Assembly: GCA_029098125.1 (NCBI GenBank)
Contig: JAQXNS010000003.1
Coordinates: 2,845 to 66,844, forward strand
From: a bacterium
GTDB taxonomy: Bacteria > Bacillota_I > Bacilli_A > RFN20 > CAG-826
Direction of reading: 5' to 3'
DNA length: 64,000 nucleotides
The translations under genes and the position numbers were made by a program. How positions within the stretch are numbered: position 1 is the stretch's first letter; each line of letters begins with the position of its first letter. Of this stretch, positions 16,803 through 60,846 are shown piece after piece. A model generated the notes under the pieces. The model had not been told where the DNA came from and searched no databases. It saw only the letters and a list, made by a program, of their open reading frames with translations.

Positions 16803-16983
16803 TTCTTTTGAAGAAAAGATGAAAAAACTAAATGAAATCGTCGAAAAATTAAGCGATGAATCAGTTTCTTTAAATGATTCTTTAAATTTATATGTTGAAG
16901 GAAAAGAGTTAATTAAAGAACTTTTTAAGTATATTAACGAAGCAAAGGAAAAAGTACAAGAAATAGATAAAAATACTAATTAG
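16792..16983 (+). CDS. xseB: Exodeoxyribonuclease VII small subunit
   Basis: MENNSFEEKMKKLNEIVEKL... is a typical XseB helical hairpin. The ORF-track start 16774 is TTG; the ATG at 16792 overlaps the xseA end by 11 nt. Its TAG stop (16981-16983) is the first TAG of repeat array 1. Confidence 0.8.
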   Translation: MENNSFEEKMKKLNEIVEKLSDESVSLNDSLNLYVEGKELIKELFKYINEAKEKVQEIDKNTN

Positions 16984-17052
16984 TAGATTTCTAGTAGGTT
17001 TCTAGTACATTTCTAGTACATTTCTAGTATGTTTCTAGTACATTTCTAGTAG
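16981..17052 (+). repeat. 11-bp CTAGTA tandem-repeat array 1 (about 6.5 units)
   Basis: tTAGTAGATTT CTAGTAGGTTT CTAGTACATTT CTAGTACATTT CTAGTATGTTT CTAGTACATTT CTAGTAG. CTAG starts at 16991, 17002, 17013, 17024, 17035 and 17046, an exact 11-nt period. Confidence 0.97.
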
Positions 17053-17075
17053 TAAAACATAAAAAATTTCTAAAA

Positions 17076-18287
17076 ATGAGCAAAATTATTTTACATATAG
17101 ATTTGAATCAATTCTTTGTTCGATGCGAAGAAATTAAAAATCCTTCATTAATTGGTAAGCCTGTTGCTGTTGGCGGCGATGGAAGAAGAGGGATTGTTTC
17201 AACTTGCTCCTATAAAGCTAGAGAATATGGGATTCATTCTGGAATGCCAATGTTTCAAGCAAAGATGCTTTGTAAAGATCTAATAATTACAGATGTTGAT
17301 TTCGAATATTATGAATTAATGTCTAAAGAATTCATCGATTATGTCAAAAAATATACTTACAAAATAGAGCAAATGTCTATTGATGAATGCTTTTGTGACA
17401 TTACAGAGGCTTATAATAAAATTGGAAATGGCGATATTTTAAAATTTTTAAAAGGTTTTCAAATTGGATTGTATAAAAAAACACAATTAAATTGTTCAAT
17501 TGGCGTTGCTTCAACAAAATTTTTAGCAAAAATGGGTTCTGATATTAAAAAACCAAATGGAATCACTATTATTAGAAAAAGAGATATTGAAAAAATTATT
17601 TTCCCATTACCTGTAAAAGATTTCTTTGGAATTGGCAAAAAAACTGCGCCACGACTTGAAAAAATTGGGTTTTCGACTATTGGTGAGCTATATTATGGCT
17701 TAAAAAATGATGATATTAGGTTAAAAGACTATTTTGAGAGCGGAAAAGATACAATAATTTCTCAACTTGAAGGCAATTCGAGCAACGAAATCTATTCGTC
17801 ATACGGTGATCCTAAATCAATTGGGCAAACTAGGACCTTAAATTACGATACAAATGATGCAGCGGTGATTAAAAAATTCCTCGAAAACATGATTGATAAC
17901 GTAATAAATGATTTTTTAAAGCTTAATATGCTTTGTAAAACTATTCAAATAACTTATAAAGATGCAGATTGTTCCAAAGATTTTAAAACAAAAACCTGTT
18001 CTAAATCATTTTCAGACTACACAAATGATAAAAAACAAATAAGAAATGCTGGTTTAGATCTTTTTACTGAAACTTACGACCACACAACAATTAGATTAAT
18101 TGGGTTTACTATTAAAAGTTTAAAAGCAAAACATGATGTTGCTGTCCAAATGACATTTGAAAACTTTGAACAGCATGAAAAAGAAAATAAAACTCAAATG
18201 ATAATAAATGATTTAAACAGAAAAGCAAAAAAGAAGATATTTTTTAGATTGAGCGACCTAACTGATAAACATTACGATGAAAATTGA
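17076..18287 (+). CDS. dinB: DNA polymerase IV (Y-family)
   Basis: N-terminus ILHIDLNQFFVRCEE..., SIDECFCD catalytic motif, and HhH GIGKKTAPRLEKIG. Confidence 0.9.
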   Translation: MSKIILHIDLNQFFVRCEEIKNPSLIGKPVAVGGDGRRGIVSTCSYKAREYGIHSGMPMFQAKMLCKDLIITDVDFEYYELMSKEFIDYVKKYTYKIEQMSIDECFCDITEAYNKIGNGDILKFLKGFQIGLYKKTQLNCSIGVASTKFLAKMGSDIKKPNGITIIRKRDIEKIIFPLPVKDFFGIGKKTAPRLEKIGFSTIGELYYGLKNDDIRLKDYFESGKDTIISQLEGNSSNEIYSSYGDPKSIGQTRTLNYDTNDAAVIKKFLENMIDNVINDFLKLNMLCKTIQITYKDADCSKDFKTKTCSKSFSDYTNDKKQIRNAGLDLFTETYDHTTIRLIGFTIKSLKAKHDVAVQMTFENFEQHEKENKTQMIINDLNRKAKKKIFFRLSDLTDKHYDEN

Positions 18288-19164
18288 TGAAGCTAAAAAT
18301 AAATTTTTAACTTTTTGCCAAATAGAAAAAGGTTTAACGAGCATAACCATTGAAGATTATAGGTTAGATTTTTTAAATTATGAAAAATGTTTTCCTGAAA
18401 TTAAAAGCGTAGAAGATATATCTATCGACGATTTATCGAATTTTGTTATATTTTTATCACTAAACGGGTTAAAAACAACATCAATTAGGCGAAAATTATC
18501 AACAATTAAGTCTTTTTATAGTTTTTTAGAAGAAGAAAACCTTGCTTCAAATATTGTCGATAAAGATGTTAGTGTTCAAAAAATTGCTAAAAATTTACCA
18601 AAATTTTTAACTAAAAATGAAATCCAAAAGCTATTAAATGCCACAAAAAAAGGTGATGAAGATGTTTTTGCTTATGCAGTTCTTAATCTATTATTTTCTT
18701 CAGGAATTAGAGTAAGCGAATTAGTAAATCTAAAGCTTAAAAATTTTAAAATTGAAGAAAAATTATTAATGGTTACTGGTAAAGGTATTAAAGATAGGTA
18801 CGTTCCATTAAGAGATGAAGCAATTTTTGCGATAAATGATTATTTAAAAAAGGTCAGAAATTTAATACCAAGGCCTTTAATTGACAAAGAAATCTTATTT
18901 TTAAATAAAAATGGCAGAAAATATAATAGAAATAGCATCTATTATTTAGTTAGGAAATATGCAAGTATTGCAAATATTCAAAAAGAAATTAGTCCGCATG
19001 TTTTAAGACATACGTTTGCAACTGTTTTAATAAATAATGGTGCAAGTGTAAGGCACGTACAAGAAATGTTAGGACATAAAAATGTCTCAACAACTGAAAT
19101 ATATACACATGTCGATACTAATCGTATTTTATCAACATATGATTTGTATTGGGACGACAACTAA
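18277..19164 (+). CDS. Xer-type tyrosine site-specific recombinase
   Basis: 295 aa with an N-terminal SAM-like core-binding domain. Catalytic R...HVLRHTFAT...GH...Y (LGHKNVSTTEIYTHV). Size and motifs fit XerC/XerD rather than a phage integrase. Confidence 0.8.
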   Translation: MKIDEAKNKFLTFCQIEKGLTSITIEDYRLDFLNYEKCFPEIKSVEDISIDDLSNFVIFLSLNGLKTTSIRRKLSTIKSFYSFLEEENLASNIVDKDVSVQKIAKNLPKFLTKNEIQKLLNATKKGDEDVFAYAVLNLLFSSGIRVSELVNLKLKNFKIEEKLLMVTGKGIKDRYVPLRDEAIFAINDYLKKVRNLIPRPLIDKEILFLNKNGRKYNRNSIYYLVRKYASIANIQKEISPHVLRHTFATVLINNGASVRHVQEMLGHKNVSTTEIYTHVDTNRILSTYDLYWDDN

Positions 19165-19188
19165 TTTATAATTTTTTTGGAGAAATAT

Positions 19189-20406
19189 ATGAAATTTAAA
19201 AGAATATTTTTAATAGTTACTGATAGTGCAGGCATAGGTAATGCTAGAGATGCTGCTAATTTTCATCAAGTAGGTAATCATAGTGATCTTGGTAGCAATA
19301 CATGGAAACATATTGCAGAAAGAATGGAAAATGGAATAAATGTACCAACACTTGAAGCTTTAGGTTTGGGCGATTTAGATGAAATTAATGGTGTAAAAGC
19401 TGGTTTGAATCACAAAAATTCTTATGCTGTTGCTCTAAATGAAGCAAGTAATGGCAAAGACACAATGACTGGTCATTGGGAAATGATGGGAATTCTAACA
19501 ACAAAGCCATTTCAAACTTTTACAGATACAGGCTTTCCAAAAGAATTAATTGATGAACTAGAAAAACGTACTGGTCATAAAATTATTGGCAACAAGAGTG
19601 CAAGTGGAACAGAAATTTTAAAAGAATTAGGCGAAGAATCAATCCGTGACAATTCTTTAATTGTTTATACAAGTAGTGATTCAGTTTTACAAATTTGTGG
19701 CCATGAAAAATATTTAGGTCTAGACAAATTATATGAATATTGTGAAATTGCACGTGAACTTTGTATGAAACCTGAATGGTTTGTTGGAAGAATCATTGCG
19801 AGACCTTATGTTGGTGAAAATAAAAACGAATTTAAGAGAACACCAAATAGACACGACTACACAGTTTCACCAAGTGGTAGAACTGTAATGGAAATTTTGA
19901 AAGAAAAAGGTTATTCAGTTAATTGTGTTGGGAAAATCAACGATATTTTTAACGGAGTAGGTGTTACAAGTACCGTTCATACAGTTTCAAATAGCGATGG
20001 AATGGCAAAAACATTAGATTTGGCTAAGGATTCTAACTTCAAAGAAGGTTTATGCTTTGTAAATTTAGTGGAATTTGACAGTGAATATGGCCATAGAAGA
20101 AATCCTGTTGGTTATGGAAAAGCACTTGAAACATTTGATAAAGAATTAGACGTACTTATCAAGAATTTACGTGAAAATGATTTATTAATGATAACAGCAG
20201 ATCATGGAAACGATCCAACTTGGGCTGGAACAGATCATACACGTGAAAAAGTCCCATTGATTATTTATTCAAAACTTATTAATGATGGTAAAAAATTGGA
20301 AGATAGAAATTCTTTCGCTGATATAGGAGATACAATTCTTAAAAATTTCAACTTAACTAAAGAAGAAGGTATGATCGGCGAAGCAATTGAAGAAGTTATT
20401 AGATAA
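19189..20406 (+). CDS. deoB: Phosphopentomutase
   Basis: MKFKRIFLIVTDSAGIG..., metal-binding TADHGNDPT...HTRE. The ORF-track start 19177 is TTG; the ATG at 19189 follows GGAGAAA. Confidence 0.9.
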   Translation: MKFKRIFLIVTDSAGIGNARDAANFHQVGNHSDLGSNTWKHIAERMENGINVPTLEALGLGDLDEINGVKAGLNHKNSYAVALNEASNGKDTMTGHWEMMGILTTKPFQTFTDTGFPKELIDELEKRTGHKIIGNKSASGTEILKELGEESIRDNSLIVYTSSDSVLQICGHEKYLGLDKLYEYCEIARELCMKPEWFVGRIIARPYVGENKNEFKRTPNRHDYTVSPSGRTVMEILKEKGYSVNCVGKINDIFNGVGVTSTVHTVSNSDGMAKTLDLAKDSNFKEGLCFVNLVEFDSEYGHRRNPVGYGKALETFDKELDVLIKNLRENDLLMITADHGNDPTWAGTDHTREKVPLIIYSKLINDGKKLEDRNSFADIGDTILKNFNLTKEEGMIGEAIEEVIR

Positions 20407-20408
20407 TT

Positions 20409-21365
20409 ATGAGAAATATTTATAGAATTTTAGCACTTTCATGTGCATGTTTTAGTTTTGTGTCATGCGCAAAAAGCAGCAATACAATAAAAACTAGTTT
20501 AATTATACCTAGCGGTGCACCAATTCTTGCTGCTTATAAAATTTTAACAAACTCTGATGCTTTTGATGTTGAAGTAAGATCCGATGCAACAACAATTCCT
20601 GCAGAATTTTTACTTGGAAATGCTAATTTCATCGTTTTTGATTCTATTAATGGTTCTAATATATTAAGTAAACAAGGTGAAAATGCTAAATATGAATATG
20701 TAAAAATGCTAACTGGAGGAAATTTTCATCTTTTAGCTTTTAATAAAGACACAATTGACATAAAAGATGAAGAAGTTGTTTATGGTTTTATGAGTAACTC
20801 AACACCAGGAAAATTATTTAGAGCAATTTATGGGGAAATTGGCTTTGATCAAAATTTTGATGGTGTAAGTGGTGTTAGAGACAGCTTACTTCAAATGAAT
20901 GAAAATTATGAAGTTAATGGTGTAAAAGTGGACTATGCAGTTGTTGCAGAGCCTGTTTCAACAGCAATAAAGTCAAAACTAAGCGCTAAAAACTTAAAAA
21001 TAACTGACATAAATCTTCAAAGTAAATTTAATGAAATCAAAGATGAATGGAAATTAGATTACATTTGTCAAGCTGGTTTGTTTGTAAATAAAGAATTTAA
21101 AAATTCAAATCCTAATGAATATTCAGCATTTATGAATGAAATAAATTCCGGAATTTCAAGTTTATTCACATCATTAGATACAGTAATTGCTACTTTTGAA
21201 GAAAAATTTGATGATGATGAATTATTTACAGCCAAATTTGGCTTTGCTAAAACCTTAGTTAAGGGTGTTCAAGGCGAAAATTCTTCAAAGAATGGCTTTG
21301 GAATAGTTCCAAACAAAGTAGAAATTAGAGTAGAAGACATTACAACTTTCTCATCCTTATTATAA
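20409..21365 (+). CDS. Lipoprotein, probable ABC-transporter substrate-binding protein
   Basis: Signal peptide with a lipobox-like FVS|C (Cys20). Sits 2 nt upstream of a permease gene. Fold assignment is not verifiable by eye. Confidence 0.5.
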   Translation: MRNIYRILALSCACFSFVSCAKSSNTIKTSLIIPSGAPILAAYKILTNSDAFDVEVRSDATTIPAEFLLGNANFIVFDSINGSNILSKQGENAKYEYVKMLTGGNFHLLAFNKDTIDIKDEEVVYGFMSNSTPGKLFRAIYGEIGFDQNFDGVSGVRDSLLQMNENYEVNGVKVDYAVVAEPVSTAIKSKLSAKNLKITDINLQSKFNEIKDEWKLDYICQAGLFVNKEFKNSNPNEYSAFMNEINSGISSLFTSLDTVIATFEEKFDDDELFTAKFGFAKTLVKGVQGENSSKNGFGIVPNKVEIRVEDITTFSSLL

Positions 21366-21367
21366 TA

Positions 21368-22138: not shown

Positions 22139-22143
22139 AAAAA

Positions 22144-22189
22144 TTTTTAAAAAAATTAATTTTGACTCCTTTTATTTATGTGAAAGGAG
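22144..22189 (+). promoter_or_regulatory. 46-bp leader, copy A, with SD-sequestering hairpin
   Basis: TTTTTAAAAAAATTAATTTTGACTCCTTTTATTTATGTGAAAGGAG is identical to the reverse complement of 47291-47336. CTCCTTT (22166-22172) can pair with AAAGGAG (22183-22189), which is the SD for ATG 22199. Confidence 0.75.
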
Positions 22190-22198
22190 GTTAAAAGT

Positions 22199-22759
22199 AT
22201 GTCAGATAAAAGTGATAATGAAAAAAGATATTTCATTGTTGAAAAAACAAGCAGCAAACTTGTTGAACAAATGGTATGGACTGAAGAAGCAATTAAAAAA
22301 GAGAACTATAATGAAGATAAACATAATTCCTTCTCTTTGAGAAAAGGTTTTGTTTATAAATATATTAAAAGAATTTCGTCCAACAATCGTATAATTTATG
22401 GTTTTTGTGTTGTTTTAGCTGATTCAGCTAAATATGATTCTCACGTACTAATTTGTCCTATTTATCCATTTATGGATAGTATTAACAAAATCAGTGTAAA
22501 TATTGGAGTAGTGCCACAACTTGATGGCACATGCGAGATAATTGGAAGTTTATGCGAAATAAATTTTGCAAGTAAAACAAGATTCATATTAAATAAAGAA
22601 AATGATATTGAACCTGTTCCTGTTTGTTATCTAAACAAAGATCAATATTTGAAATTACTTTTATCGTACAAAGATTTTATCTGCGCAATTGTTAAGAGCA
22701 ATTCTTCAATTCGCGTGTCTTATAGAAATCAAGATAATGAAATGACTTATACGTGCTAG
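22199..22759 (+). CDS. Hypothetical cytoplasmic protein (186 aa)
   Basis: Strong SD (AAAGGAGG). No motif recognised with confidence. The central region faintly resembles a PemK/MazF-like beta-barrel pattern (...YGFCVVLADS...HVLICPIYPF...). It is the last + strand gene before the strand switch. Confidence 0.55.
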   Translation: MSDKSDNEKRYFIVEKTSSKLVEQMVWTEEAIKKENYNEDKHNSFSLRKGFVYKYIKRISSNNRIIYGFCVVLADSAKYDSHVLICPIYPFMDSINKISVNIGVVPQLDGTCEIIGSLCEINFASKTRFILNKENDIEPVPVCYLNKDQYLKLLLSYKDFICAIVKSNSSIRVSYRNQDNEMTYTC

Positions 22760-22809
22760 ATTATTTTTAATAAACATATACCTTCCAAAAAATATCTATA
22801 ATTGCCAAA

Positions 22810-22875
22810 TTAGTAGGTTTCTAGTAGGTTTCTAGTACATTTCTAGTAGATTTCTAGTAGATTTCTAGTAGGTTT
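22810..22875 (+). repeat. 11-bp CTAGTA tandem-repeat array 2 (6 units)
   Basis: tTAGTAGGTTT CTAGTAGGTTT CTAGTACATTT CTAGTAGATTT CTAGTAGATTT CTAGTAGGTTT. Lies between convergent genes. Confidence 0.97.
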
Positions 22876-22927
22876 TTCAGATTTTCTGATTTAAAATTTG
22901 TTTAACCTACTTTTTTATTTTTTGAAT

Positions 22928-22955
22928 TTTTTACTTAATATATATTATGCGAAGT
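22928..22955. other. Candidate dif (Xer recombination) site
   Basis: TTTTTACTTAATATATATTATGCGAAGT. The right 19 nt (AATATATATTATGCGAAGT) match my recollection of B. subtilis dif (AATATATATTATGTAAACT) at 16/19. The left arm matches poorly. Located at the gene-orientation switch. Confidence 0.3.
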
Positions 22956-22975
22956 AGTTTTGAACATTAAAAAAG

Positions 22976-25640: not shown

Positions 25641-25714
25641 AACTACTAAAAACCTACTAGAAATGTACTAGAAACCTACTAGAAATGTACTAGAAACCTA
25701 CTAAAAAACTACTA
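25641..25714 (-). repeat. 11-bp CTAGTA tandem-repeat array 3 (5 clean plus 2 decayed units, minus orientation)
   Basis: Forward strand reads ...CTACTAA AAACCTACTAG AAATGTACTAG AAACCTACTAG AAATGTACTAG AAACCTACTAA AAAACTACTA. The GG and CA units alternate strictly. Lies in the divergent gap between yqeG and ORF 25763. Confidence 0.97.
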
Positions 25715-25762
25715 TACGCAAAAAATATGTATTTTTTATTCAGTTTAGTTTAATATATAGAT

Positions 25763-25993
25763 ATGAATTTTAAGGAAGCAGATTTTAATGTAAAACTAGC
25801 CAATGTCTTAATGATATTTGGCGGTTTCTTTACTATATTTATACCAATTATAGGTGCTGGTTTTTTTATTGCATCCATTTGTCTAACTTATTCACGAATG
25901 AACACAAAAATGGCACATACTTTTGTGGCTTCATTATTAGGTTTAATTTCTTGTTTAATAATTTTTATTATCTCTATAGTTAATACTCTTTAA
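25763..25993 (+). CDS. Small hypothetical membrane protein (76 aa, 2 TM)
   Basis: Two long hydrophobic segments and no SD. A TAATAT hexamer lies 6 nt upstream of the ATG. The coding status is uncertain. Confidence 0.4.
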   Translation: MNFKEADFNVKLANVLMIFGGFFTIFIPIIGAGFFIASICLTYSRMNTKMAHTFVASLLGLISCLIIFIISIVNTL

Positions 25994-31501: not shown

Positions 31502-31578
31502 CTAGTAGGAAACTAGTAGGTTTCTAGTACATTTCTAGTACATTTCTAGTAGGTTTCTAGTACATTTCTAGTACATTA
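31502..31578 (+). repeat. 11-bp CTAGTA tandem-repeat array 4 (7 units)
   Basis: CTAGTAGGAAA CTAGTAGGTTT CTAGTACATTT CTAGTACATTT CTAGTAGGTTT CTAGTACATTT CTAGTACATTA. Begins 2 nt after the plsY TAG stop and lies upstream of the plsY terminator. Confidence 0.97.
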
Positions 31579-31615
31579 AAAACCATGTGGAAATCTACAT
31601 AAAACATTGCTTATA

Positions 31616-31645
31616 TTAAAAAAAGTCGAATTAATTCGACTTTTT
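31616..31645. terminator. Bidirectional Rho-independent terminator
   Basis: A-run, then the palindrome GTCGAATTAATTCGAC (31625-31640), then TTTTT. Confidence 0.65.
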
Positions 31646-31688
31646 AATTGACTTTGTATCAGTTTTCCACAATATTTTGAAAAGAAAA

Positions 31689-33169: not shown

Positions 33170-33175
33170 TCTTTA

Positions 33176-33325
33176 TTATTTCTTTTCTTTGAAAACTTGA
33201 ACTTTTCTACAATGTGGACAATATTTTTTCTTTTCAATTCTATCAGGATTGTTTTTCTTGTTTTTTGATGTGATATATTGTTCTTCTCCACAAACTGTAC
33301 ATTTTAAGATAATGTTATCGCGCAT
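33176..33325 (-). CDS. rpmG: 50S ribosomal protein L33
   Basis: Not in the ORF track. My translation is [49 protein letters not shown] (49 aa) with a CxxC...CxxC zinc ribbon. SD AAAGGAG. Confidence 0.88.
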
Positions 33326-33415
33326 AATATCACTCCTTTCGCCATAATGCTTTAAAATTCTAGCACAAATCAGTTTTTGTTTCTATAATTATTATATTTT
33401 TATATAATAAAAAAT

Positions 33416-47283: not shown

Positions 47284-47290
47284 AAAAAAA

Positions 47291-47336
47291 CTCCTTTCAC
47301 ATAAATAAAAGGAGTCAAAATTAATTTTTTTAAAAA
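47291..47336 (-). promoter_or_regulatory. 46-bp leader, copy B, with SD-sequestering hairpin
   Basis: Reverse complement is identical to 22144-22189. The stem 47291-47297 / 47308-47314 contains the SD of the C39 gene. On the minus strand it is followed by U7 and then ATG, so it could also terminate rpsU transcripts. Confidence 0.75.
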
Positions 47337-47355
47337 ATATTTCAATTTTTTTAAA

Positions 47356-47529
47356 TTATCTATATTTTTTTCTTGCGTTTTCGCTTTTTAATTTTCTTTT
47401 AAGATTTTTCTTTAAAAAGCATTCTCTTCTTCTGCATTCTTGGATAGTTCCAGCTTTATTAACTTGTCTTTTGAATCTACGTAATGCATCATCGAGTGTT
47501 TCGCCATCTCTAATTACTACTTTTGACAT
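47356..47529 (-). CDS. rpsU: 30S ribosomal protein S21
   Basis: Not in the ORF track. My translation is [57 protein letters not shown] (57 aa). SD GGAGGTGAAGG. Confidence 0.9.
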
Positions 47530-47598
47530 CTCACCTTCACCTCCTTCGCTAAATGCTATAAAAGTTTACTAAATCAATAATTAATTTTCAATATATTT

Positions 47599-48279: not shown

Positions 48280-48356
48280 CTATCTACTAGAAATGTACTA
48301 GAAACATACTAGATATATACTAGAAACCTACTAGAAATGTACTAGAAATCTACTAG
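48280..48356 (-). repeat. 11-bp CTAGTA tandem-repeat array 5 (7 units, minus orientation)
   Basis: Forward strand reads CTATCTACTAG AAATGTACTAG AAACATACTAG ATATATACTAG AAACCTACTAG AAATGTACTAG AAATCTACTAG. The last unit contains the TAG stop (48353-48355) of the upstream pseudogene. Confidence 0.97.
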
Positions 48357-49299
48357 TTAGTGTTTTTTTGTATTTTTGATATTAAATCCATTACTTTTTG
48401 TGTATCGCTGTGTGGCATTGATTTTGTTTCAATTTTTTTGTTAGTTATTGCGTCGTAACACTCATAAAATTGATATTCGTAGCCATTTATTTGATCAACA
48501 AATTTCTTTGTACTGATAAGATTTCCGCTATTATCATAAACAATTATTTGGTATGGATTATTTATATTATCAACGTATAAATATCCTTTTGATCCATAAA
48601 TATAACCGCTTCTATCTGATCTTCCTTTCATGGAAGAATATAAAATTGCGGATACATTATTTGGGTAAATTAAATGTATGATGTCGGTTTCGTCTACCCC
48701 ATTGTTCATAAATAAAGTCGATTTTACGTCAATATAATTGTCTCCTAGAACCATTAATGCAAAATTTATTGGATAAACTCCTACATCCAATAGGGCTCCA
48801 CCACCAAGTTCTTTCTTGATTAATCTTTCAATATTATCGATTTTATATGATAATTTGCTGAAACCAGATAAATATCCCCAATTATTCCATCATTTATCAA
48901 TTCATTGATGTAAATTCTTGATGGCATATATCTTGTCCATATTGCTTCTGCTAAGAAAACATTGTTTTTATGCGATAGTTTGATCAATTCTTCACTTTCT
49001 TTTGAATTAACAGTAAATGATTTTTCAACAATCACGTTCTTTTTAGCTTCTAGGCAAGCTTTTACATCATTAAAATGGTTCGAAATATATGTCGAAACAT
49101 ATACTAAATCAACGTTATCATCTTTTAAAAGATCTTCATAACTTTCATAGGCTTTTTGAAATCCTAGCTCATTTTTATACTCTAAACATCTAGAATAATC
49201 TCTTGAAGCACAGCCAAAAAGAACGAATCTTTCATCGTTTTTTAAAGCTTCTACTATTTTTCTTCCTATTTTGGAACATCCATAAAATGCTAAATTCAT
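48353..49299 (-). pseudogene. Gfo/Idh/MocA-family oxidoreductase, frameshifted
   Basis: ORF 48820-49299 encodes the Rossmann N-domain and ORF 48353-48790 the C-domain. The -1 frame across 48790-48860 reads ...KIDNIERLIKKELGGGALLDVGVY, joining the two, so a single frameshift lies near 48830-48865. Confidence 0.7.
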
Positions 49300-56004: not shown

Positions 56005-56031
56005 AATTTAATCCTCCTGATTAATTTATAT

Positions 56032-56622
56032 TTATTCTTTAGCTTGAGATTCTTCTTCTCTTTTGTCCTCTGCTTTTTCATCCTTAGGACTTGGATGTTT
56101 ACTAACTGCTACCATTGCAGCTCTGATTAAGTGATCGTGAAGTTTATAACCTTTCATTCTAACTTCTGTAATTAAGTTTTCTTCGCCATCACTTTCTTTT
56201 GTTTCAACGGCATGCATAGTATTTTCATCGAATTTATCACCAATTTTTGGTTCAAGAATTTGAATTCCTTCATTTTCAAGAACACTCAACAACGAATTGT
56301 GAACATACTCAAATCCAATTAAGTAGTTTTTCATTTCAGTTGTAGTTGGTTTATTTTTTAAAGCCATATCGAATGCATCTAAGATACTTAATAAATTTTC
56401 AGCGAATCCTTCAATTCTGTATTTTAGAGATTCTCTATGATCTTTTTCGATCTGTTTTCTTAAATTTGCCATATCAGCATAAGCTTTATAATACTCATTT
56501 TTCCAATGTTCAGCGTCTGATTTGGCTTTTAAAAGTTCTTCTTCAACATTTCTTTCTTCTTTTTTGTCTTCTTTTTGAGTAGCTGATGTTTTTTCTTGAA
56601 CTTTTTCTTCTTTATTTTCCAT
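56032..56622 (-). CDS. grpE: Nucleotide exchange factor GrpE
   Basis: Coiled-coil followed by a beta-domain (...GDKFDENTMHAV...). The ATG at 56622 follows GAAGGAG and overlaps the hrcA end by 11 nt. The ORF-track start 56658 is less likely. Confidence 0.88.
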   Translation of the reverse strand: MENKEEKVQEKTSATQKEDKKEERNVEEELLKAKSDAEHWKNEYYKAYADMANLRKQIEKDHRESLKYRIEGFAENLLSILDAFDMALKNKPTTTEMKNYLIGFEYVHNSLLSVLENEGIQILEPKIGDKFDENTMHAVETKESDGEENLITEVRMKGYKLHDHLIRAAMVAVSKHPSPKDEKAEDKREEESQAKE

Positions 56623-57661
56623 CTGTGCTTTCTCCTTCTTTTTCTTGAATACCTTCATATGAAAAGTGCTCCATTATTTTACTTGCAACATATTCTAATG
56701 TATTAATTACATTTGAATAATCCATTCTTGTAGGCCCAATAATTGCGATTTTCCCCATTGATTTTCCGTTAGCGATTAAATCTTTTGAGATAACTCCAAC
56801 ATCTTCATAATGTTCTTCGACATCACCACAATTTATTAAGATATCATTTCCAGCTTGTTCAATTATGCTAATGATATCTTGCTTTGAGTTGAATAATCCG
56901 AATAGTTTTTTAAGTTCTTCTGGATTATCTTTGAATTCAGGTTGAGTCAATAAGTTTTCTCTTCCATAAATTTCTCCGCTTCTTTTTGAAGCGATATCGT
57001 AGAATGTTTTGATCAATAAATCATAAATGAAGTTGTAGTTTGTTATATATTCACTAAGAATTGGCTTGATATTGGACATTTTTTCAACTAATAAGCTTAC
57101 TTTTGTTCCTTTTAAACGTTCATTTAGTAAACTTACACATTGCTTGATGTCTTCAATATTTAAATCATCCTTAAGATTGAATGTTTTGTTTTCAACATAA
57201 CCTTTGTCGGTAACAAATATTGCAGTTACTGTGAAACTATTGATTGGTACAAGTTGAATGCTAACAAGTTTTTCTTCATCAGCACTTGGTCCAAGAACCA
57301 CACTTGCTAGATTTGTCATGTGTGAAAGAATTTCACAACTTTCTTTTAATACTTCATCTACTGAAGTTGTTTTTGAGAAGATTGTGTTAATCTCGTTTTT
57401 GACATTTTCATCAATTTGTGAGTTTCTTAAGTTTTCAATGTAATATTTATAACCTTCATTTGAAGGAACTCTTCCACTGGATGTATGAGTTTTTTCTAAC
57501 AAACCTTCTTTTTCAAGTGCATTCATCTCATTTCTGATTGTCGCGCTTGAAATATTTAAGTTGTATTTTTGAATTAGATAGTTCGAACCAACTGGTTCAG
57601 CTGTCTTAATAAAATCTTCAACTATTAATTTTAATAAAGTTTGTTTTCTAGTAAGCCCCAT
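56612..57661 (-). CDS. hrcA: Heat-inducible transcription repressor HrcA
   Basis: N-terminal winged helix (MGLTRKQTLLKLIVEDFIKTAEPVGSNYL...SSATIRNEM..LEKEGLLEKTHTSSGRVP). The ATG at 57661 follows GAGGT. The ORF-track start is GTG 57679. Confidence 0.9.
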   Translation of the reverse strand: MGLTRKQTLLKLIVEDFIKTAEPVGSNYLIQKYNLNISSATIRNEMNALEKEGLLEKTHTSSGRVPSNEGYKYYIENLRNSQIDENVKNEINTIFSKTTSVDEVLKESCEILSHMTNLASVVLGPSADEEKLVSIQLVPINSFTVTAIFVTDKGYVENKTFNLKDDLNIEDIKQCVSLLNERLKGTKVSLLVEKMSNIKPILSEYITNYNFIYDLLIKTFYDIASKRSGEIYGRENLLTQPEFKDNPEELKKLFGLFNSKQDIISIIEQAGNDILINCGDVEEHYEDVGVISKDLIANGKSMGKIAIIGPTRMDYSNVINTLEYVASKIMEHFSYEGIQEKEGESTDGK

Positions 57662-57672
57662 AATCACTACCT

Positions 57673-57699
57673 CTAGCACTCATTTTCTTTAAGTGCTAA
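57673..57699 (-). promoter_or_regulatory. CIRCE operator 1
   Basis: CTAGCACTC-ATTTTCTTT-AAGTGCTAA versus the consensus TTAGCACTC-N9-GAGTGCTAA. Lies between the -10 box and the hrcA SD. Confidence 0.85.
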
Positions 57700-57703
57700 C
57701 TAT

Positions 57704-57731
57704 ATTATAAAGACTTATCTAGCACTGTCAA
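57704..57731 (-). promoter_or_regulatory. Sigma-A promoter of the hrcA-grpE-dnaK-dnaJ operon (TTGACA-16 nt-TATAAT)
   Basis: Minus-strand TTGACA (57726-57731) and TATAAT (57704-57709). The -35 box is embedded in CIRCE 2. Confidence 0.7.
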
Positions 57732-57745
57732 CAAAAAAGTGCTAA
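57719..57745 (-). promoter_or_regulatory. CIRCE operator 2
   Basis: CTAGCACTG-TCAACAAAA-AAGTGCTAA, a second inverted repeat with a 9-nt spacer, 19 nt from the first. Confidence 0.75.
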
Positions 57746-57764
57746 AAATTTTAAAATTTCTTTT

Positions 57765-58883
57765 TTAGAACAATTTTTCTAAAACAAAATCTAAGAGCAT
57801 TATGCCTTCATCAGTGCAAAACAACCTATTATTTTCTATTTTTATTAAGTTTCTATTTATTAAATCGCTAATTTCTGACTTTTTTAAGTCTAAAATGTCG
57901 ATATTATATCTATTTTTGAATGTTTCTAACAAAAAACCTTCCTGAAGTCTTAAATTGCATAGCAAAAAGTATTCAATATCATCTTTTTGTGACACTTCTT
58001 CTTTAACGCCATCTCTTATTCCTTTTATATATTTAGTTAAGGATGCTGAATTTTTATATCTAATATTATTAATATATCCACTCGCACCAACTCCAAGTGC
58101 AATATATTCTTCATTTTTCCAATAAGTTATATTGTGTTTTGACTCAAAACCTGGTTTTGCAAAATTACTAACTTCGTATCTTGAAAAACCATTTTTTCTG
58201 AAATTATCTAAAATATAATCGTAATATTTTCTTAGAATTTCATCTGATGTTTCCTTATATCCTTTTATATTATATAAGGATGGACCATCGATAATTAAAG
58301 AATATGTTGAAATATGAGGTATATCTAATTTTAAAAATACCTCGACATCATGTTTTAATTCTTCAAAAGTTTCATCTAAAATTCCATAAATCAAATCAAC
58401 ATTAATATTTGAAAAATATTTTTTTGCAAGTTTAATTTTTGAAGGTATATCAATGGCATAATCTCTATCAATTAGTTTAAGTAATCTTGCGTTAAAAGTT
58501 TGAATTCCGATAGAAATTCGATTAATTTTGTTATTTTTTAATGTTTTTAATATATTTTCGTCAATATTTTCAGGATTTAATTCAATTGTAAATTCATAAC
58601 TGTCTTCTAATAATGGAGTAATTTTTGAAAATAAATCACAAATTTGGCTAGAAGACAAAATAGACGGTGTTCCACCGCCTATATATATTGTTTTGAATTT
58701 ATATCTTTTTTGAATTAATTGATCTAAATCTTTCTTTAATTCTACAAGATATTGATTTAGAAATGATTCGTTGTAAATAAATTTAACAAAATCGCAATAA
58801 GGACAAATTCTTTTGCAAAAAGGAATATGAATGTAAAGACTATTTATCTTGTGATTCATTTTTTTGATTTTTAAATTCTTCAA
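57765..58883 (-). CDS. hemW: Radical SAM heme chaperone HemW (HemN-like)
   Basis: LYIHIPFCKRICPYCDF (CxxxCxxC), GGGTPS, and the position between lepA and hrcA. The alternative start is ATG 58859. Confidence 0.88.
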   Translation of the reverse strand: MKNLKIKKMNHKINSLYIHIPFCKRICPYCDFVKFIYNESFLNQYLVELKKDLDQLIQKRYKFKTIYIGGGTPSILSSSQICDLFSKITPLLEDSYEFTIELNPENIDENILKTLKNNKINRISIGIQTFNARLLKLIDRDYAIDIPSKIKLAKKYFSNINVDLIYGILDETFEELKHDVEVFLKLDIPHISTYSLIIDGPSLYNIKGYKETSDEILRKYYDYILDNFRKNGFSRYEVSNFAKPGFESKHNITYWKNEEYIALGVGASGYINNIRYKNSASLTKYIKGIRDGVKEEVSQKDDIEYFLLCNLRLQEGFLLETFKNRYNIDILDLKKSEISDLINRNLIKIENNRLFCTDEGIMLLDFVLEKLF

Positions 58884-59091
58884 ATTGTTTTTTTGTTTCT
58901 GGATCTTCTACTTCTTCTAAAATTCTGCTTAAATTTTCATCAGCAGCTTTTTCTAAGTCGACTTCTTCGCTGCTATTTTTATTTAATATAAACTTTCTTA
59001 AAAGAAAAACTCCAAGAGCGATTAATCCAAAAATCCCAAGAATTAATAATAAAATAGCCCAGGATTCATTGTACCATTCTGTAAAAATCAT
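58840..59091 (-). CDS. Small hypothetical membrane-anchored acidic protein (83 aa)
   Basis: Single N-terminal TM segment (WAILLLILGIFGLIALGVFLL) followed by a Glu/Lys-rich tail. Overlaps the hemW start. Confidence 0.45.
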   Translation of the reverse strand: MIFTEWYNESWAILLLILGIFGLIALGVFLLRKFILNKNSSEEVDLEKAADENLSRILEEVEDPETKKQFEEFKNQKNESQDK

Positions 59092-59103
59092 CTTTTTAAA
59101 CTC

Positions 59104-60690
59104 CTAATTACGTTTGATTGGGACATAAACAAACTTTTTGCCCATAATTTCTTTCTTATAATAACCTAAAACTACCAAATCGTTCATGCTTTTTCTAGCA
59201 GTTTCGTATGCACAACCAATTTCTTTTTGATATTGATTAACTGTATAGAACATACCAATTGTACAATGACGTGCATAGAAATATGCTTGCCCGTGTGTTA
59301 TTAATGGGTTCATTTCCATTAAATGATTTTCAAGTCTCATTGCTTCTTCATCAGTTAATCCAGTTGGAACGTTAGAAATTGCAATATTTTTTGAGAAAAC
59401 AACAGTCTTGTTTTGTGGAACAAGTTCTTTATCGTTTTGAATTAATTCAGGAATTTCAATTCTTCTTGGTGTATCAACCTTGTTTTCTTGTGGTTTTTCT
59501 TCAATTTTTACTTCTTTTTCAACAGGTTTTGCTATTATTTCGACTTCTTGAACCTTTTTTTCTTGTTCTAAAGTGTCTTTTTTAGCTTGAACTTCTTCTA
59601 AACTTGTTGGAATGACTGTATTTAATTCTTCTTTTGTAATACCAACTTTTTCAAATAATGGTTCTTTTGTGAGAAAACTATTAGTTGGTTCTGACTGATA
59701 TAAGTCTTTTTTTACTGATAAATTCTCAGAAAAAACCATTTCATCAGCGACATTTGCTAAAATTTTGTCTGTTTTTGCTAAGAAAAAGTCTAATAAGTAT
59801 GTTAAATCGTAGTTTGCTTGACATTCTTGAATTACTTTTTCGACTTCATCTTTACAATTTAAGATACAATCAAAGTTTAAAGTTGCAGCAACACCTTCTA
59901 TATCGTTATAAGCTAAGACTTTTTTGAAGAATAATAATGCAATTTCTTCATTATATGTGCTAAATGGTTTAACAAAGTAAATATAATAGAAAGTGCAAAC
60001 AGCCTTAGCAAATAAATCTAAATCATTATTAGAATAATCTAAAAAATCAATTAAATTATCGATATAACTTTCAATTTTTTGAGGTGGGACACCTAAGCGA
60101 AGAACTTTATATGAGTATTCGCCATTACTTCCACTGTAATTTCCTGTTCTATAATATTCGGTTAAATCATCAGTTCCCATTAAATATGTATAAAATTCAC
60201 CAATTGTATCTGCAGAAATATCTTTTAAACAATTAAATTCAATCTCTTTTAAGCAGTTAAAATATCTTTGAATGATAACTTTATCATATGATAATGCATT
60301 CCCGCTTTCTCTAATTATATTGTCGTAAACAGATTCTTCAGCTTCAATTCTATAAGATTTACTAATTTCTTTAAGAATTCTTCTGTAACTGATCAATCGA
60401 TAATTATCGATATTGTAATCTCTTTGAAGTTTAGCGTATTTATTTGATAAATTTGATAATTTTCTTTCAATTGTGTTTAATTTTGCATTAATTGATGGAG
60501 TAAAACAAATTGAAAAATTTGTATTGTCAATATGTTTTAAATTGATTGGTTTCATAAATTGTTGTCTATAAGATAAGATTTGAGTCCAAATCCCATCAAT
60601 TAAGTTTGTTTTCATTTCAACAACAACATCATGTTTTGTAGCATATTTTTCTTCGCTAAATTTTTTGATTTTTTCATTCACGATTGCCAT
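59104..60690 (-). CDS. Fic/Fido-like protein with a degenerate active-site motif and a C-terminal winged-helix-like domain
   Basis: 528 aa. The region FAKAVCTFYYIYFVKPFSTYNEEIALLFF resembles the Fic core, but HPFxxGNGR is replaced by KPFSTYNEE. The C-terminus (...YETARKSMNDLVVLGYY...) looks like a wHTH. All judged by eye. Confidence 0.4.
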   Translation of the reverse strand: MAIVNEKIKKFSEEKYATKHDVVVEMKTNLIDGIWTQILSYRQQFMKPINLKHIDNTNFSICFTPSINAKLNTIERKLSNLSNKYAKLQRDYNIDNYRLISYRRILKEISKSYRIEAEESVYDNIIRESGNALSYDKVIIQRYFNCLKEIEFNCLKDISADTIGEFYTYLMGTDDLTEYYRTGNYSGSNGEYSYKVLRLGVPPQKIESYIDNLIDFLDYSNNDLDLFAKAVCTFYYIYFVKPFSTYNEEIALLFFKKVLAYNDIEGVAATLNFDCILNCKDEVEKVIQECQANYDLTYLLDFFLAKTDKILANVADEMVFSENLSVKKDLYQSEPTNSFLTKEPLFEKVGITKEELNTVIPTSLEEVQAKKDTLEQEKKVQEVEIIAKPVEKEVKIEEKPQENKVDTPRRIEIPELIQNDKELVPQNKTVVFSKNIAISNVPTGLTDEEAMRLENHLMEMNPLITHGQAYFYARHCTIGMFYTVNQYQKEIGCAYETARKSMNDLVVLGYYKKEIMGKKFVYVPIKRN

Positions 60691-60758
60691 GATATTTCTC
60701 CGTTAAAGTTAAAAATATTATAACACATGTATTCTGATTTTAAAGATAATTTTTGAAA

Positions 60759-60846
60759 ATTATTACTAGAAATGTACTAGAAACCTACTAGTTATCTACT
60801 AGAAACCTACTAGAAATGTACTAGAAACCTACTAATTATCTACTAA
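60759..60846 (-). repeat. 11-bp CTAGTA tandem-repeat array 6 (8 units, minus orientation)
   Basis: Forward strand reads ATTATTACTAG AAATGTACTAG AAACCTACTAG TTATCTACTAG AAACCTACTAG AAATGTACTAG AAACCTACTAA TTATCTACTAA. Lies between lepA and the Fic-like gene. Confidence 0.97.

Follow-up and report, generated by a model that had tools for sequence, protein, structure and literature searches.

Bacterial proteins are known to read short cores repeated head-to-tail every 11 bp. ArcA sites consist of 2-5 direct repeats with an 11-bp centre-to-centre distance and occasional 22-bp gaps (PMC3798270), and parC of plasmid R1 comprises two sets of five 11-bp iterons, with approximately one ParR dimer per iteron (PMC2241845), its 11-bp iterons having been named correctly in the sequence-only reading that preceded this work. 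A comparable spacing is found at the RNA level, where the primary binding site of Rho has been modelled as [(YC)N9-13]n and the single-molecule footprint of 57 +/- 2 nt, divided over six sites, leaves linkers of ~9 nt, i.e. ~11 nt per subunit, while GG/GGT motifs and G richness are negative predictors of Rho termination in E. coli (PMC6144790). The winged helix of Rok, a xenogeneic silencer of B. subtilis, prefers the pentamer TACTA, which Rok-bearing genomes deplete (PMC6212790).

Here, we describe arrays with a strict 11-nt period in an uncultured Bacilli lineage of the gut, labelled 'Candidatus Onthovivens sp.', which has a small genome of 28% GC, reads UGA as Trp and uses only UAA and UAG as stop codons, with a preference for UAA (45 of 59). 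The window, i.e. the whole 64-kb stretch of DNA analysed, covers the replication terminus, and the whole array sample lies within ~50 kb of it. As an element the arrays are undescribed, no described element matching them, and the function discussed below is a proposal.

Results

Six arrays share one unit and one period

The window holds 6 arrays with together 42 TAGTA cores (Table 1). That six 11-bp arrays are present, as first noted, is borne out by Tandem Repeats Finder (period 11 and 5.9-7.5 copies in all six), by core counts and by shuffling, with 28 exact matches to CTAGTANNTTT observed against 0.83 +/- 0.95 in shuffles and none of 100 shuffles reaching 28. No TAGTA-N6-TAGTA pair occurs outside the six arrays on either strand of the window. 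The commonest units are CTAGTACATTT (n=13) and CTAGTAGGTTT (n=10), followed by those with GATTT (n=3) and TGTTT (n=2). The same arrays recur in 8 further independent assemblies of the species and are therefore not assembly artefacts. Comparison of unit counts between strains, as suggested beforehand, revealed variable copy number (e.g. 6 versus 7 units in array 4), and some strains carry mutated cores.

Table 1 TAGTA arrays in the window and their gene context.
Array	Position	Strand	TAGTA units	Setting	Neighbouring genes
1	16980..17051	+	7	xseB-dinB junction	xseB stop codon is the first TAG; dinB ATG 24 nt past the last unit
2	22810..22875	+	6	convergent intergenic region	begins 51 nt past the stop of a clade-specific 193-aa ORF
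3	25641..25715	-	7	co-oriented with parC and yqeG	parC 275 nt upstream; yqeG 82 nt downstream
4	31502..31578	+	7	convergent intergenic region	3 nt past plsY stop
5	48280..48356	-	7	upstream of deoC	first TAG terminates a frameshifted Gfo/Idh/MocA-type oxidoreductase ORF; deoC ATG 50 nt past the last unit
6	60759..60846	-	8	lepA to Fic-like 528-aa gene	40 nt past lepA stop; 73 nt ahead of the ATG of the Fic-like gene

The supposed avoidance of CTAG fails here, as 89 copies lie outside the arrays where ~106 (Markov) to 166 (mononucleotide) are expected. TAGTA/TACTA, in turn, ranks second from the bottom in abundance outside the arrays among the 80 pentamers made of four A/T and one G/C, and one third of all its copies fall in 0.7% of the sequence. 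This scarcity may be caused simply by avoidance of TA steps and stop codons. The density of one array per 10 kb given earlier holds as an average only, with the first 17 kb of the window and the 10 kb past its right end free of arrays.

Core and period are conserved at orthologous junctions

A check of related lineages, proposed at the outset, recovered TAGTA arrays of 11-nt period in relatives at 53-65% ParC identity, at orthologous junctions and in the same orientation, each relative having arrays at three or four junctions. In L128, L130, L131, L133 and L135 the xseB-dinB gap is filled by orthologous arrays; those at the junction of array 2 start -3 to +7 nt from the stop of the clade-specific ORF, and those at the junction of array 3 end 2-10 nt ahead of the yqeG ATG in L128, L130 and L131. 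In L135 the small ORF is absent and a degenerate array, which we read as starting at the parC stop, lies within a 39-bp parC-yqeG gap. The array at the lepA junction is likewise conserved, directly past lepA in L142, L143 and L144, and L143 has an additional array between hemW and hrcA. At plsY, all 8 species aligned retain three AGTA/TAGTA blocks at 11-nt intervals without change.

The relatives' arrays hold 2-4 repeats, mostly 3-4 units and in the most distant lineages 2 or degenerate ones, the middle unit being degenerate on occasion. Alignments of three junctions that made no use of the motif show diverging spacers around a TAGTA core and an exact 11-nt period that never vary; the conserved unit is therefore TAGTA+N6, which can also be written as (T/C)TAGTA followed by 5 free positions. 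The unit CTAGTA-NN-TTT of the sequence-only reading is thus valid for the window species and not as the conserved unit, since its C and TTT are species-specific: among relatives the base ahead of TAGTA is T in 62-64% and C in ~20%, and the T3 tract is lacking, so that phased T-tract curvature, also suggested, cannot be what is conserved. In the window species the spacer has been altered to TTTC...[G/C][A/G] alike at all six sites, a common change that fits a single trans-acting factor co-evolving with the arrays. Judged against its relatives, with 3-4 units, this species has expanded the arrays to 6-8 units and made the spacer homogeneous.

The expansion, the copy-number differences between strains and the mutated cores would fit slippage-prone minisatellites devoid of function. 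Independent satellites would, however, neither share core and period at at least 7 junctions in at least 8 species nor hold the core invariant while spacers diverge, and on these comparative data such an origin appears largely refuted and scarcely plausible. The same evidence, i.e. orthologous conservation, invariant TAGTA and period, and free spacers, strongly backs the earlier suggestion that a sequence-specific protein probably reads the arrays.

The arrays follow stop codons in the sense orientation

All six arrays are intergenic under genetic code 4, in line with the original description, and arrays 1 and 5, noted there as overlapping the upstream stop, both supply the TAG that ends the upstream ORF. 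Every array is in sense with the gene whose end immediately precedes it. Its first core is usually close to that gene's stop, at -10 to +7 nt at the xseB, plsY, 18x-aa ORF and oxidoreductase junctions and likewise at the lepA junction of L144, and stop-anchored arrays include two convergent intergenic regions of ~100-460 bp. Some arrays extend to the start of the next gene, ending in relatives 2-10 nt ahead of the dinB and yqeG start codons. Array 3 sits between a divergent 76-aa ORF and the yqeG promoter region; the interval from array 6 to the Fic-like gene contains an extended -10 element (TGTGTTATAAT).

Arrays that begin at or beside a stop codon, and sometimes provide it, could constitute a fail-safe translational stop cassette, with each unit offering UAG followed by U. 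With a period of 11 nt the frame moves by -1 at each unit, so that an array of at least three units would halt ribosomes in every frame; the 3-4 units of the relatives approximate this minimum, and only UAA and UAG function as stops in this organism. No such cassette is needed, however, because at 28% GC chance stop codons arise about every 16 codons, as estimated from base composition; moreover, the arrays employ UAG despite the preference for UAA, periods of 4, 5, 7, 8 or 10 nt would serve equally well and yet it is always 11, and 6-8 units are superfluous. Any tandem repeat containing TAG trivially ends the ORFs that enter it, as seen in unrelated contigs, and we consider this explanation very unlikely.

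Taken without the proximity argument, orientation is informative at only 3 of 7 independent sites, the co-directional ones, and for the five arrays other than array 4 gene orientation is confounded with replichore. Array 4 is oriented as plsY, which is head-on to replication; orientation therefore tracks transcription and not replichore. This bears on the idea that the arrays, like Ter sites, are polar replication-fork barriers which enclose the terminus in a fork trap. The arrays do flank the dif-like site, 5 of 6 point toward it, and one lies ~50-80 bp away in the window and occupies the same junction in all relatives, array 2 being followed by a weak hairpin and then, ~50-80 nt further, by the dif-like site. 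Array 4 nevertheless points the opposite way, with plsY, in an arrangement conserved in 8 species, the remaining five suffer from the confounding above, arrays extend to +38 kb at gene junctions, and no Tus- or RTP-like gene was recognised, making a fork trap most improbable.

The sequence-only reading itself had proposed chromosomal loading or organising sites, i.e. nucleation, loading or centromere-like sites for a nucleoid organiser (for example a Rok-like minor-groove binder, a ParR-like adaptor or a terminus-domain organiser) without a direct role in transcription. In agreement, parC has the same 11-bp tandem architecture, TACTA is the reverse complement of TAGTA and the pair is depleted outside arrays here too, and all arrays seen lie -6 to +38 kb relative to the dif-like site. 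We nonetheless regard it as improbable, as it leaves unexplained the sense orientation and the 0-7 nt stop proximity of most arrays, the pentamer depletion has the trivial alternative given above, and no par, rep or other partner gene adjoins the arrays. Sense orientation and stop proximity rather point to a role at transcription-unit boundaries.

Relation to terminators and RNA structure

No hairpin terminators were found in the gaps bearing arrays 1, 3, 5 and 6, and strong hairpins occur in the array-free gaps past rpsU and past a 65-aa ORF. Array 4 is followed by a DnaA-box-like 9-mer and a bidirectional hairpin terminator; in the aligned species with visible flank, a conserved intrinsic terminator is present 40-50 nt past the plsY array, which is thus not needed as a terminator there. 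The earlier statement that stable hairpins are absent was right in substance: predicted folds are weak and array-specific (z-scores -0.85 to -2.5), with no fold consistent across arrays. In searches for a described repeat family, the arrays hit nothing in Rfam at E<=1, nor any plasmid or phage.

These features also define the main rival to a DNA-bound protein, an RNA-level factor site of Rho-rut-like geometry, in which (Y)UAGUA every 11 nt in a transcribed 3' UTR or intercistronic region loads an oligomeric RNA-binding factor once the ribosome leaves the stop codon. A Rho-type hexamer, with the array as its idealised rut site, could be that factor, as could some other protein that forms rings or filaments; alternatively, the units could mark RNase cleavage. 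Sense orientation, a start 0-7 nt past the stop codon, unstructured array RNA and the location of array 4 within a 3' UTR, ahead of a hairpin terminator, all agree with it, and the window arrays are exactly (UC)N9 repeated 6-8 times over 66-88 nt, matching the ~11 nt per Rho subunit. Against this, the relatives' units often lack the C, units have G >= C plus GG/GGT motifs, a 2-nt Rho pocket does not explain the invariant AGUA, and it would be chance that the period agrees exactly with the helical repeat of DNA. Furthermore, a Rho-type site 2-10 nt ahead of the dinB and yqeG starts would terminate those downstream genes. We consider an RNA-level site possible, albeit rather unlikely.

Discussion

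Because the relatives keep their arrays at the same junctions, our best reading, held tentatively, is that the arrays are docking sites for a boundary-marking protein, i.e. head-to-tail DNA binding sites for a putative clade-specific protein that form a boundary or operator between transcription units. A protein ligand, its recognition of DNA and not of RNA, and an outcome of termination, insulation or repression are all inferred. In favour of DNA recognition, the 11-bp period approximates one helical turn.

We propose that the putative sequence-specific protein would recognise one (T/C)TAGTA site per turn of the duplex and bind cooperatively, head-to-tail, along 2-8 sites, in an architecture such as that of ParR on parC and of ArcA/OmpR/PhoB-type winged-helix proteins. 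With the sites placed at the transcription-unit junction, directly past the upstream stop codon and in the orientation of the upstream gene, the bound filament would act as a polar boundary that stops or attenuates RNA polymerase leaving that gene. Where the array abuts the next start or promoter, as at dinB, yqeG and the Fic-like gene, the filament may in addition occlude or tune the promoter.

A DNA roadblock accounts less naturally for the tight stop proximity than a mechanism at the RNA level or coupled to translation does. No candidate gene for the putative protein adjoins the arrays, and the neighbouring 193-aa ORF fell into no recognisable class. We also know of no natural bacterial system with dedicated DNA-bound terminator arrays, and the prior for the docking-site reading is consequently low.

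Comparison with known systems

The closest analogue for array action may lie in the eukaryotic rDNA and mitochondrial terminators (TTF-I/Reb1 Sal-box repeats, mTERF), which are DNA-bound and polar and halt the polymerase. They are protein-binding repeats and, like the TAGTA arrays, are set in tandem with a fixed orientation just past a transcription unit, but belong to another domain of life, have longer repeats of unrelated sequence, and share a termination role with the TAGTA arrays only as proposed here. To our knowledge, such terminator repeats have no bacterial counterpart.

Enterobacterial REP/BIME elements are similarly short, dispersed, oriented and situated just past stop codons in transcribed intergenic regions; REPs are, however, imperfect palindromes that form hairpins, whereas TAGTA arrays are direct repeats without a consistent fold. 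The pentamer preferred by Rok is TAGTA read on the other strand, and it is scarce in the rest of the genome, but Rok sites are not phased tandem arrays and Rok is known only from Bacillus. With rut sites, the arrays of the window species have in common a UC dimer every 11 nt over 6-8 units (66-88 nt), unstructured RNA and a sense-strand position directly past the stop codon at transcription-unit ends. Rut sites are degenerate rather than exact tandem repeats, and TAGTA arrays are not C-rich and G-poor, often lack C in relatives and contain an invariant AGUA without rut counterpart.

The parC locus of R1 shows the same exact 11-bp tandem period, with 5-8 units per block and no spacers, and the cooperative coating by a small protein demonstrated for parC is plausible for TAGTA arrays. 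It is a single, autoregulatory plasmid locus flanking the par promoter, whereas TAGTA arrays occupy at least six dispersed chromosomal loci with no parM/parR nearby, are tied to gene 3' ends and are unrelated in sequence. ArcA boxes (OmpR/PhoB family) differ in their unrelated core, whereas TAGTA arrays are anchored to the upstream stop codon, reach up to 8 units and in two cases occupy convergent regions that offer no promoter for regulation. They nevertheless resemble TAGTA arrays in consisting of head-to-tail direct repeats with one short core per 11 bp at dispersed chromosomal sites, with 2-5 repeats per site and occasional 22-bp gaps, some of the sites overlapping or abutting promoters and start codons, as do the arrays at the dinB and yqeG junctions.

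Six period-11 arrays near a replication terminus

Six tandem arrays of TAGTA-containing units with a period of 11 bp are present in the window (see the table below), as claimed in the sequence-only reading, and their presence was confirmed by Tandem Repeats Finder, by direct reading of the sequence at all six sites and by the count of CTAGTANNTTT, which occurs 28 times in the window compared to 0.83 expected. Outside the six arrays, no TAGTA-N6-TAGTA pair was detected on either strand of the whole 64 kb. Six other assemblies of the same species contain arrays 2-4 and two more contain array 6, at identical positions. Comparison of unit counts between strains, proposed earlier as a check for VNTR behavior, revealed a mildly variable copy number: array 4 consists of 6 or 7 units depending on the assembly, two variable unit positions differ between assemblies, and a few cores are mutated in one strain. 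The arrays could be used as typing markers. In total, ~74 kb of the window species was covered, along with syntenic loci of 22 kb each from relatives, all near the terminus.

The GC content of the window is ~28%, and dense ORFs are obtained only with UGA read as Trp (20 in-frame TGA; stops TAA 45 and TAG 14). Exact protein matches stem from a large number of gut metagenome assemblies and from MAGs that bear the label 'bacterium' or 'Candidatus Onthovivens sp.'. Near 22.8 kb, both gene strand and GC skew switch, and this position harbors a sequence that we take to be XerCD dif-like from by-eye comparison with dif consensus sequences. It is conserved in all relatives, e.g. as tttacataatagatattatacgaagtaa in L128 (a ParC-centred locus of a relative), and is probably the site in the terminus where chromosome dimers are resolved. 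Taken together, the skew and strand switches and the dif-like sequence place the replication terminus within the window.

The last gene before the dif-like site is always a clade-specific ORF of 186-193 aa. For the 193-aa protein of the window, considered as a candidate for the array-binding factor, no Pfam, PHROG or PDB sequence match was found, a word-based search recovered its own species only, and a single-sequence AlphaFold model (pLDDT 35) was unusable; a by-eye impression of a PemK/MazF-like protein was unsupported and was dropped. Separately, the 33-bp repeat inside the hisS-like ORF gives its product an unusual C-terminal extension (CCCGDDHEHE...), rich in Cys, His and Asp and metal-binding in appearance.

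Coordinates of the arrays and of neighboring features in the window
Feature	Position	Strand	Remarks
hisS-like ORF	9484-11049		histidyl-tRNA synthetase by eye
33-bp tandem repeat	10810-10932		3.7 copies, inside hisS-like ORF
Array 1, period 11	16981-17051	+	Tandem Repeats Finder; 7 TAGTA units
193-aa ORF	22178-22759	+	array 2 follows
Array 2, period 11	22811-22875	+	Tandem Repeats Finder; 6 TAGTA units
dif-like sequence (presumed)	22921-22955		tttacttaatatatattatgcgaagtag
Array 3, period 11	25643-25714	-	Tandem Repeats Finder; 7 TAGTA units
76-aa hydrophobic ORF	25763-25993	+	antisense to parC, 4-nt overlap with parC stop
Array 4, period 11	31513-31577	+	Tandem Repeats Finder; 7 TAGTA units
DnaA-box-like 9-mer	31586-31594	+	TGTGGAAAT
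Hairpin	31620-31645		bidirectional terminator between plsY and UPF0154 gene
DnaA-box-like 9-mer	31663-31671	-	TGTGGAAAA
Gap with small ribosomal-protein gene	33170-33415	-	by eye; below 60-aa cut-off; the L33 gene called in related loci
Gap with rpsU-like gene	47284-47598	-	by eye; below 60-aa ORF cut-off; then strong hairpin terminator
Array 5, period 11	48285-48356	-	Tandem Repeats Finder; 7 TAGTA units
ORF pair upstream of array 5	48353-49299	-	two overlapping frames, 48820-49299 and 48353-48940
Array 6, period 11	60764-60845	-	Tandem Repeats Finder; 8 TAGTA units

Core and period are conserved at orthologous junctions

Syntenic loci of other species were found via ParC homologues (65, 64-63, 60, 58, 56 and 53% identity), covering four of the junctions of the window, and three further loci via LepA homologues (86, 83 and 81% identity). 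Relatives with 58-65% ParC identity maintain the exact 11-nt TAGTA spacing at three or four of the four junctions, with the orientation kept and 3-4 units per array. The conserved junctions are xseB|dinB, the plsY 3' end, the region upstream of yqeG (array not seen in L134, one of the ParC-centred loci) and the 3' end of the dif-adjacent 18x-aa ORF. In the relatives with 56 and 53% ParC identity, 2-3 units remain, partly degenerate. The LepA-centred loci display an array after lepA, and one of them, L143, an extra 4-unit array between hemW and hrcA.

Junction alignments were built without reference to the motif. At the plsY junction, with eight species aligned, the sole invariant blocks are three AGTA/TAGTA blocks, 11 columns apart, and the xseB|dinB and 18x-aa ORF junctions follow the same pattern. 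The spacers diverge, being AT-rich in the relatives, e.g. TTAGTAGATAA and TTAGTAATAAA, and of the type TTTC...[G/C][A/G] in the window species. The functional unit is, as judged from these alignments, (T/C)TAGTA followed by five free positions. Thus, of the unit CTAGTA-NN-TTT described in the sequence-only reading, the TAGTA core and the 11-bp period are invariant across relatives, whereas the T3 tract is species-specific; the curvature invoked there is consequently not a conserved property. Nor is CTAG conspicuous through avoidance, as had been argued, since it occurs outside the arrays at roughly the expected frequency.

Invariance of core and period at orthologous junctions with differing spacers indicates that both are under selection. 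The comparative data effectively exclude a neutral minisatellite, a reading to which we assign a minimal probability. In the window lineage, the arrays have been enlarged and their spacer has become uniform across all sites, suggesting either co-evolution with a single factor or concerted evolution.

The arrays are sense-oriented and placed at gene ends

Every array is sense-oriented with respect to the gene ending just upstream. The distance from the stop codon to the first TAGTA is -10 to +5 nt for xseB, +1 to +5 nt for plsY, -3 to +7 nt for the 18x-aa ORF in relatives (51 nt in the window), -3 nt for the oxidoreductase, +1 to +40 nt for lepA, 53 nt for hemW in L143, and 275-296 nt for parC where a small antisense ORF intervenes. 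This ORF, of 76 aa in the window, is conserved in most relatives and stands, where present, between parC and array 3. It is absent in L135, a ParC-centred locus in which a degenerate array occupies the 39-bp parC-yqeG gap and, by reading, starts at the parC stop. We note that the ORF pair upstream of array 5, by eye a Gfo/Idh/MocA-type oxidoreductase, is split between two overlapping frames owing to a frameshift, to pseudogene formation or to an error in the assembly.

On the downstream side, the array ends 5-12 nt before the dinB ATG in relatives and 2-10 nt before the yqeG ATG in three relative species, compared to 24-82 nt before dinB, deoC, yqeG and the Fic-like gene in the window, where a clear extended -10 element is located between array 6 and the Fic-like gene. 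At the plsY and 18x-aa ORF sites, where the flanking genes converge on an intergenic region of about 100-460 bp, the array is located on the side of the co-oriented gene, at its stop codon (in the window at the offset given for the 18x-aa ORF). As plsY is head-on to replication, array orientation tracks transcription and not the replichore. A replication fork trap of the Ter/Tus-RTP type, for which polar sites in two opposed groups on either side of the terminus would be expected, was rejected and is scarcely credible despite the terminal location, since array 4 departs from the mirror symmetry and instead takes the orientation of its gene, in an arrangement conserved in 8 species. Overall, seven independent junctions are available, three of which inform on orientation without an argument from proximity.

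The arrays could also simply serve as three-frame stop cassettes. However, that an array supplies a stop codon is uninformative in itself, because TAG in all three frames ends any entering ORF, and we regard such a function as very improbable. The informative feature is the placement at gene ends.

Hairpin terminators and DnaA-box-like sequences

Hairpin terminators are scarce in the window. Two gaps without array, one following rpsU and the other a 65-aa ORF, contain strong hairpins, and no hairpin terminator was found in the gaps of arrays 1, 3, 5 and 6 and only a weak one in the gap of array 2. A hairpin terminator is present 40-50 nt after array 4, and it is kept in the aligned relatives with visible flank. 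With a conserved terminator downstream, the array at this site is located in the 3' UTR and is not required as a terminator.

The two DnaA-box-like 9-mers lie on either side of this hairpin, at a great distance from any origin. A TGTGGAWAA-type box follows the plsY array in most relatives and also the dif-adjacent array in L134, L135 and L145 (ParC-centred loci), and DnaA-box-like 9-mers also occur at the site by the dif-like sequence in some relatives. A link to DnaA was rejected, as the 9-mers show no enrichment in the window (64 vs 57 expected), where they accompany array 4 only. The DnaA-trio consists of contiguous 3-nt repeats of the 5'-TAG-3' type beside a DnaA box; this element was excluded, since the array period is 11 and not 3, with only one or two contiguous TAG per unit.

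Comparison to known element classes and to other 11-bp arrays

CRISPR arrays comprise 24-40-bp repeats separated by unique spacers, REP/BIME and MITE elements form hairpins from imperfect palindromes or terminal inverted repeats, and the exclusion of these classes and of terminators in the sequence-only reading holds. The units are 11 bp long, head-to-tail and spacer-free, the folds are weak and differ per array (z = -0.85 to -2.5), and a G+C-rich hairpin with U tract is absent within the arrays. The relatives lack the CTAG palindrome and hence its self-complementarity, which together with the weak, array-specific folds also argues against a structured RNA. Replication-origin iterons of plasmids and phages, which are found beside a rep or initiator gene together with DnaA boxes and an AT-rich unwinding element, were rejected based on the lack of a rep gene, the restriction of DnaA-box-like 9-mers to the vicinity of array 4, a GC skew typical of the terminus, and the absence of plasmid or phage similarity. 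MazF UACAU sites, 16S-tail mimicry and a sigma-dependent pause (-10-like) fit the window spacer or some units only and are not conserved in relatives.

In the whole window, the covariance models of Rfam 15 yielded nothing, neither at the gathering score nor with a cut-off of E<=1. No similarity to plasmid and phage records was revealed by BLAST, although the low-complexity filter may mask such queries, and no description of such arrays was found in the literature on 11-bp repeats in Mollicutes, TAGTA direct repeats and Onthovivens. The earlier statement that no family could be named is thereby upheld.

In a species-representative genome collection without the source species, three CTAGTANNTTT units matched solely an unrelated, gammaproteobacterial Pseudomonadales MAG (L001, CAJQJT010000359.1). 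Positions 84-138 of this contig contain five copies of TTCTAGTAATT with an 11-bp period and the same CTAGTA core, flanked on one side by a hairpin terminator and on the other by the start of what by eye is a probable dnaB gene; the site is also present in contig L102. For metagenome contigs with four TAGTA at period 11, only unrelated 11-bp satellites, none of the Onthovivens type, were found among the matches listed, and the AT-rich ones among these share no common context. Virus contigs gave four matches, roughly the level expected by chance. Two low-GC IMG/VR phage contigs (L140, 10880-10917; L138, 1631-1668) comprise four 11-bp units with TTTCTAGTA, located ~120 bp upstream of a by-eye replication module of 220-aa, 281-aa and DnaB-helicase-like ORFs. 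These arrays may be phage iterons or operators, with a resemblance to the window unit within the chance level expected.

A second, unrelated 11-bp family with 4-6 units of TTAGTAGGTGA / TTAGTATGTGA was detected in Bacteroidota-like contigs of GC 0.44-0.52 (L016, L018, L019, L022, L037, L048, L050, L053, L079, L092, L099, L104, L114, L121 and L124). In most of these contigs, the array is followed by a 'ggttata(a/t)...' motif and, at least in L022, L050 and L114, by a conserved 145-aa ORF (MAKI(I/F)YS(A/S)GIDLTTGALD...) without Pfam or PHROG match. These arrays may belong to a mobile element, as its iteron or operator.

Discussion

Based on the comparative analyses, we conclude that the arrays are real and constitute a cis-element that is sharply defined, has been conserved in evolution and matches no described family. 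An invariant 5-nt core per 11 nt in 2-8 head-to-tail copies would, by analogy, be the signature of cooperative protein binding to one face of duplex DNA. In conjunction, the placement at gene ends, the sense orientation and the location between transcription units lead us to propose, tentatively and at somewhat less than even probability, that the arrays are boundary elements bound by a putative protein. The candidate protein would coat the array cooperatively as a filament along one face of the duplex, and the bound filament would halt or attenuate polymerases leaving the upstream gene. Where the array abuts the next promoter or start codon, the filament would also occlude that promoter.

Alternatively, the arrays may operate at the RNA level, the main rival, which we consider possible if unlikely. 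A factor loading on RNA that is free of ribosomes would account most naturally for the short distance to the stop codon, and Rho is one candidate. Rut sites require YC dimers at intervals of 9-13 nt over about 60-80 nt of unstructured, G-poor RNA with C>G skew. The Rho primary-site model is [(YC)N9-13]n, with a footprint of ~11 nt per subunit (PMC6144790), and the window arrays, read as (UC)N9 x 6-8, contain such YC dimers and would be a geometrically ideal primary-site ligand. However, relatives often lack C in the unit (~20% C at that position) and hence contain the YC dimers only in part, C does not prevail over G as expected (3 G and 1 C in the GG-type unit, 1 G and 2 C in the CA-type unit), and a 2-nt pocket leaves the invariant AGUA unexplained.

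In a further reading, the arrays might mark a hitherto unknown, factor-dependent way of ending or insulating transcription units in bacteria through polar halting of RNA polymerase by a dedicated protein, a more speculative proposal that we regard as doubtful. Such a protein would sit on the phased TAGTA array after the stop codon, either on DNA, like the eukaryotic TTF-I, Reb1 and mTERF, or on nascent RNA, and the system would take over part of the role of hairpin terminators in this lineage of gut Bacilli, which is reduced and AT-rich and uses UGA=Trp.

Little is understood about the delimitation of transcription units in genomes that are reduced, AT-rich and poor in hairpin terminators, notably those of Mollicutes-like Bacilli, and a clade-wide gene-end cis-element with an invariant pentamer and an exact period represents a concrete handle on this question. 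Such an element predicts a single trans-acting factor, as well as a signature that should be measurable in metatranscriptomes of the gut. A factor that acts as a polar terminator bound to DNA would constitute a new mode of termination in bacteria; if Rho is the factor, no cleaner natural rut sites than these arrays would be known; and in the case of a global regulator or nucleoid protein, the arrays would define its regulon in a gut lineage that is both widespread and uncultured.

Among known systems, type II ParR/parC centromeres are built from tandem direct repeats of about 11 bp (or 20 bp), to which the adaptor binds cooperatively. In parC of plasmid R1, the 11-bp iterons are grouped in fives, with one ParR dimer on each iteron (PMC2241845). 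The arrays are similar in being tandem direct repeats of period 11, with 6-8 units each, but occupy six dispersed loci, unlike the single ParR/parC locus at the parM-parR promoter. No par genes were found beside the arrays, the neighbors being xseB/dinB, plsY, parC/yqeG, lepA, deoC and others. A centromere or an organizing site of the chromosome, the function favored in the sequence-only reading, is improbable. ArcA sites consist of 2-5 direct repeats at 11 bp centre-to-centre with occasional 22-bp gaps, and the arrays resemble OmpR/PhoB/ArcA operators in containing at least two direct repeats at 10-11-bp centre-to-centre spacing (PMC3798270). A promoter-proximal operator role is plausible at the dinB, yqeG, deoC and Fic-like junctions but not at the convergent plsY and 193-aa ORF sites, and there is no response regulator gene within the window. 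Rok has a winged helix with a preference for TACTA, which is the core read in reverse complement, and TACTA is depleted from genomes that encode Rok (PMC6212790). The array core thus matches the pentamer of Rok-type high-affinity targets (TACTA/AACTA). Outside the arrays, TAGTA/TACTA is the 2nd rarest of 80 comparable pentamers, a pattern that would also arise if TA steps and stop codons were avoided. We know of no direct-repeat binding-array family with dispersed, sense-oriented and stop-codon-anchored use; the architecture of the arrays itself is, by analogy, that of known direct-repeat protein-binding arrays.
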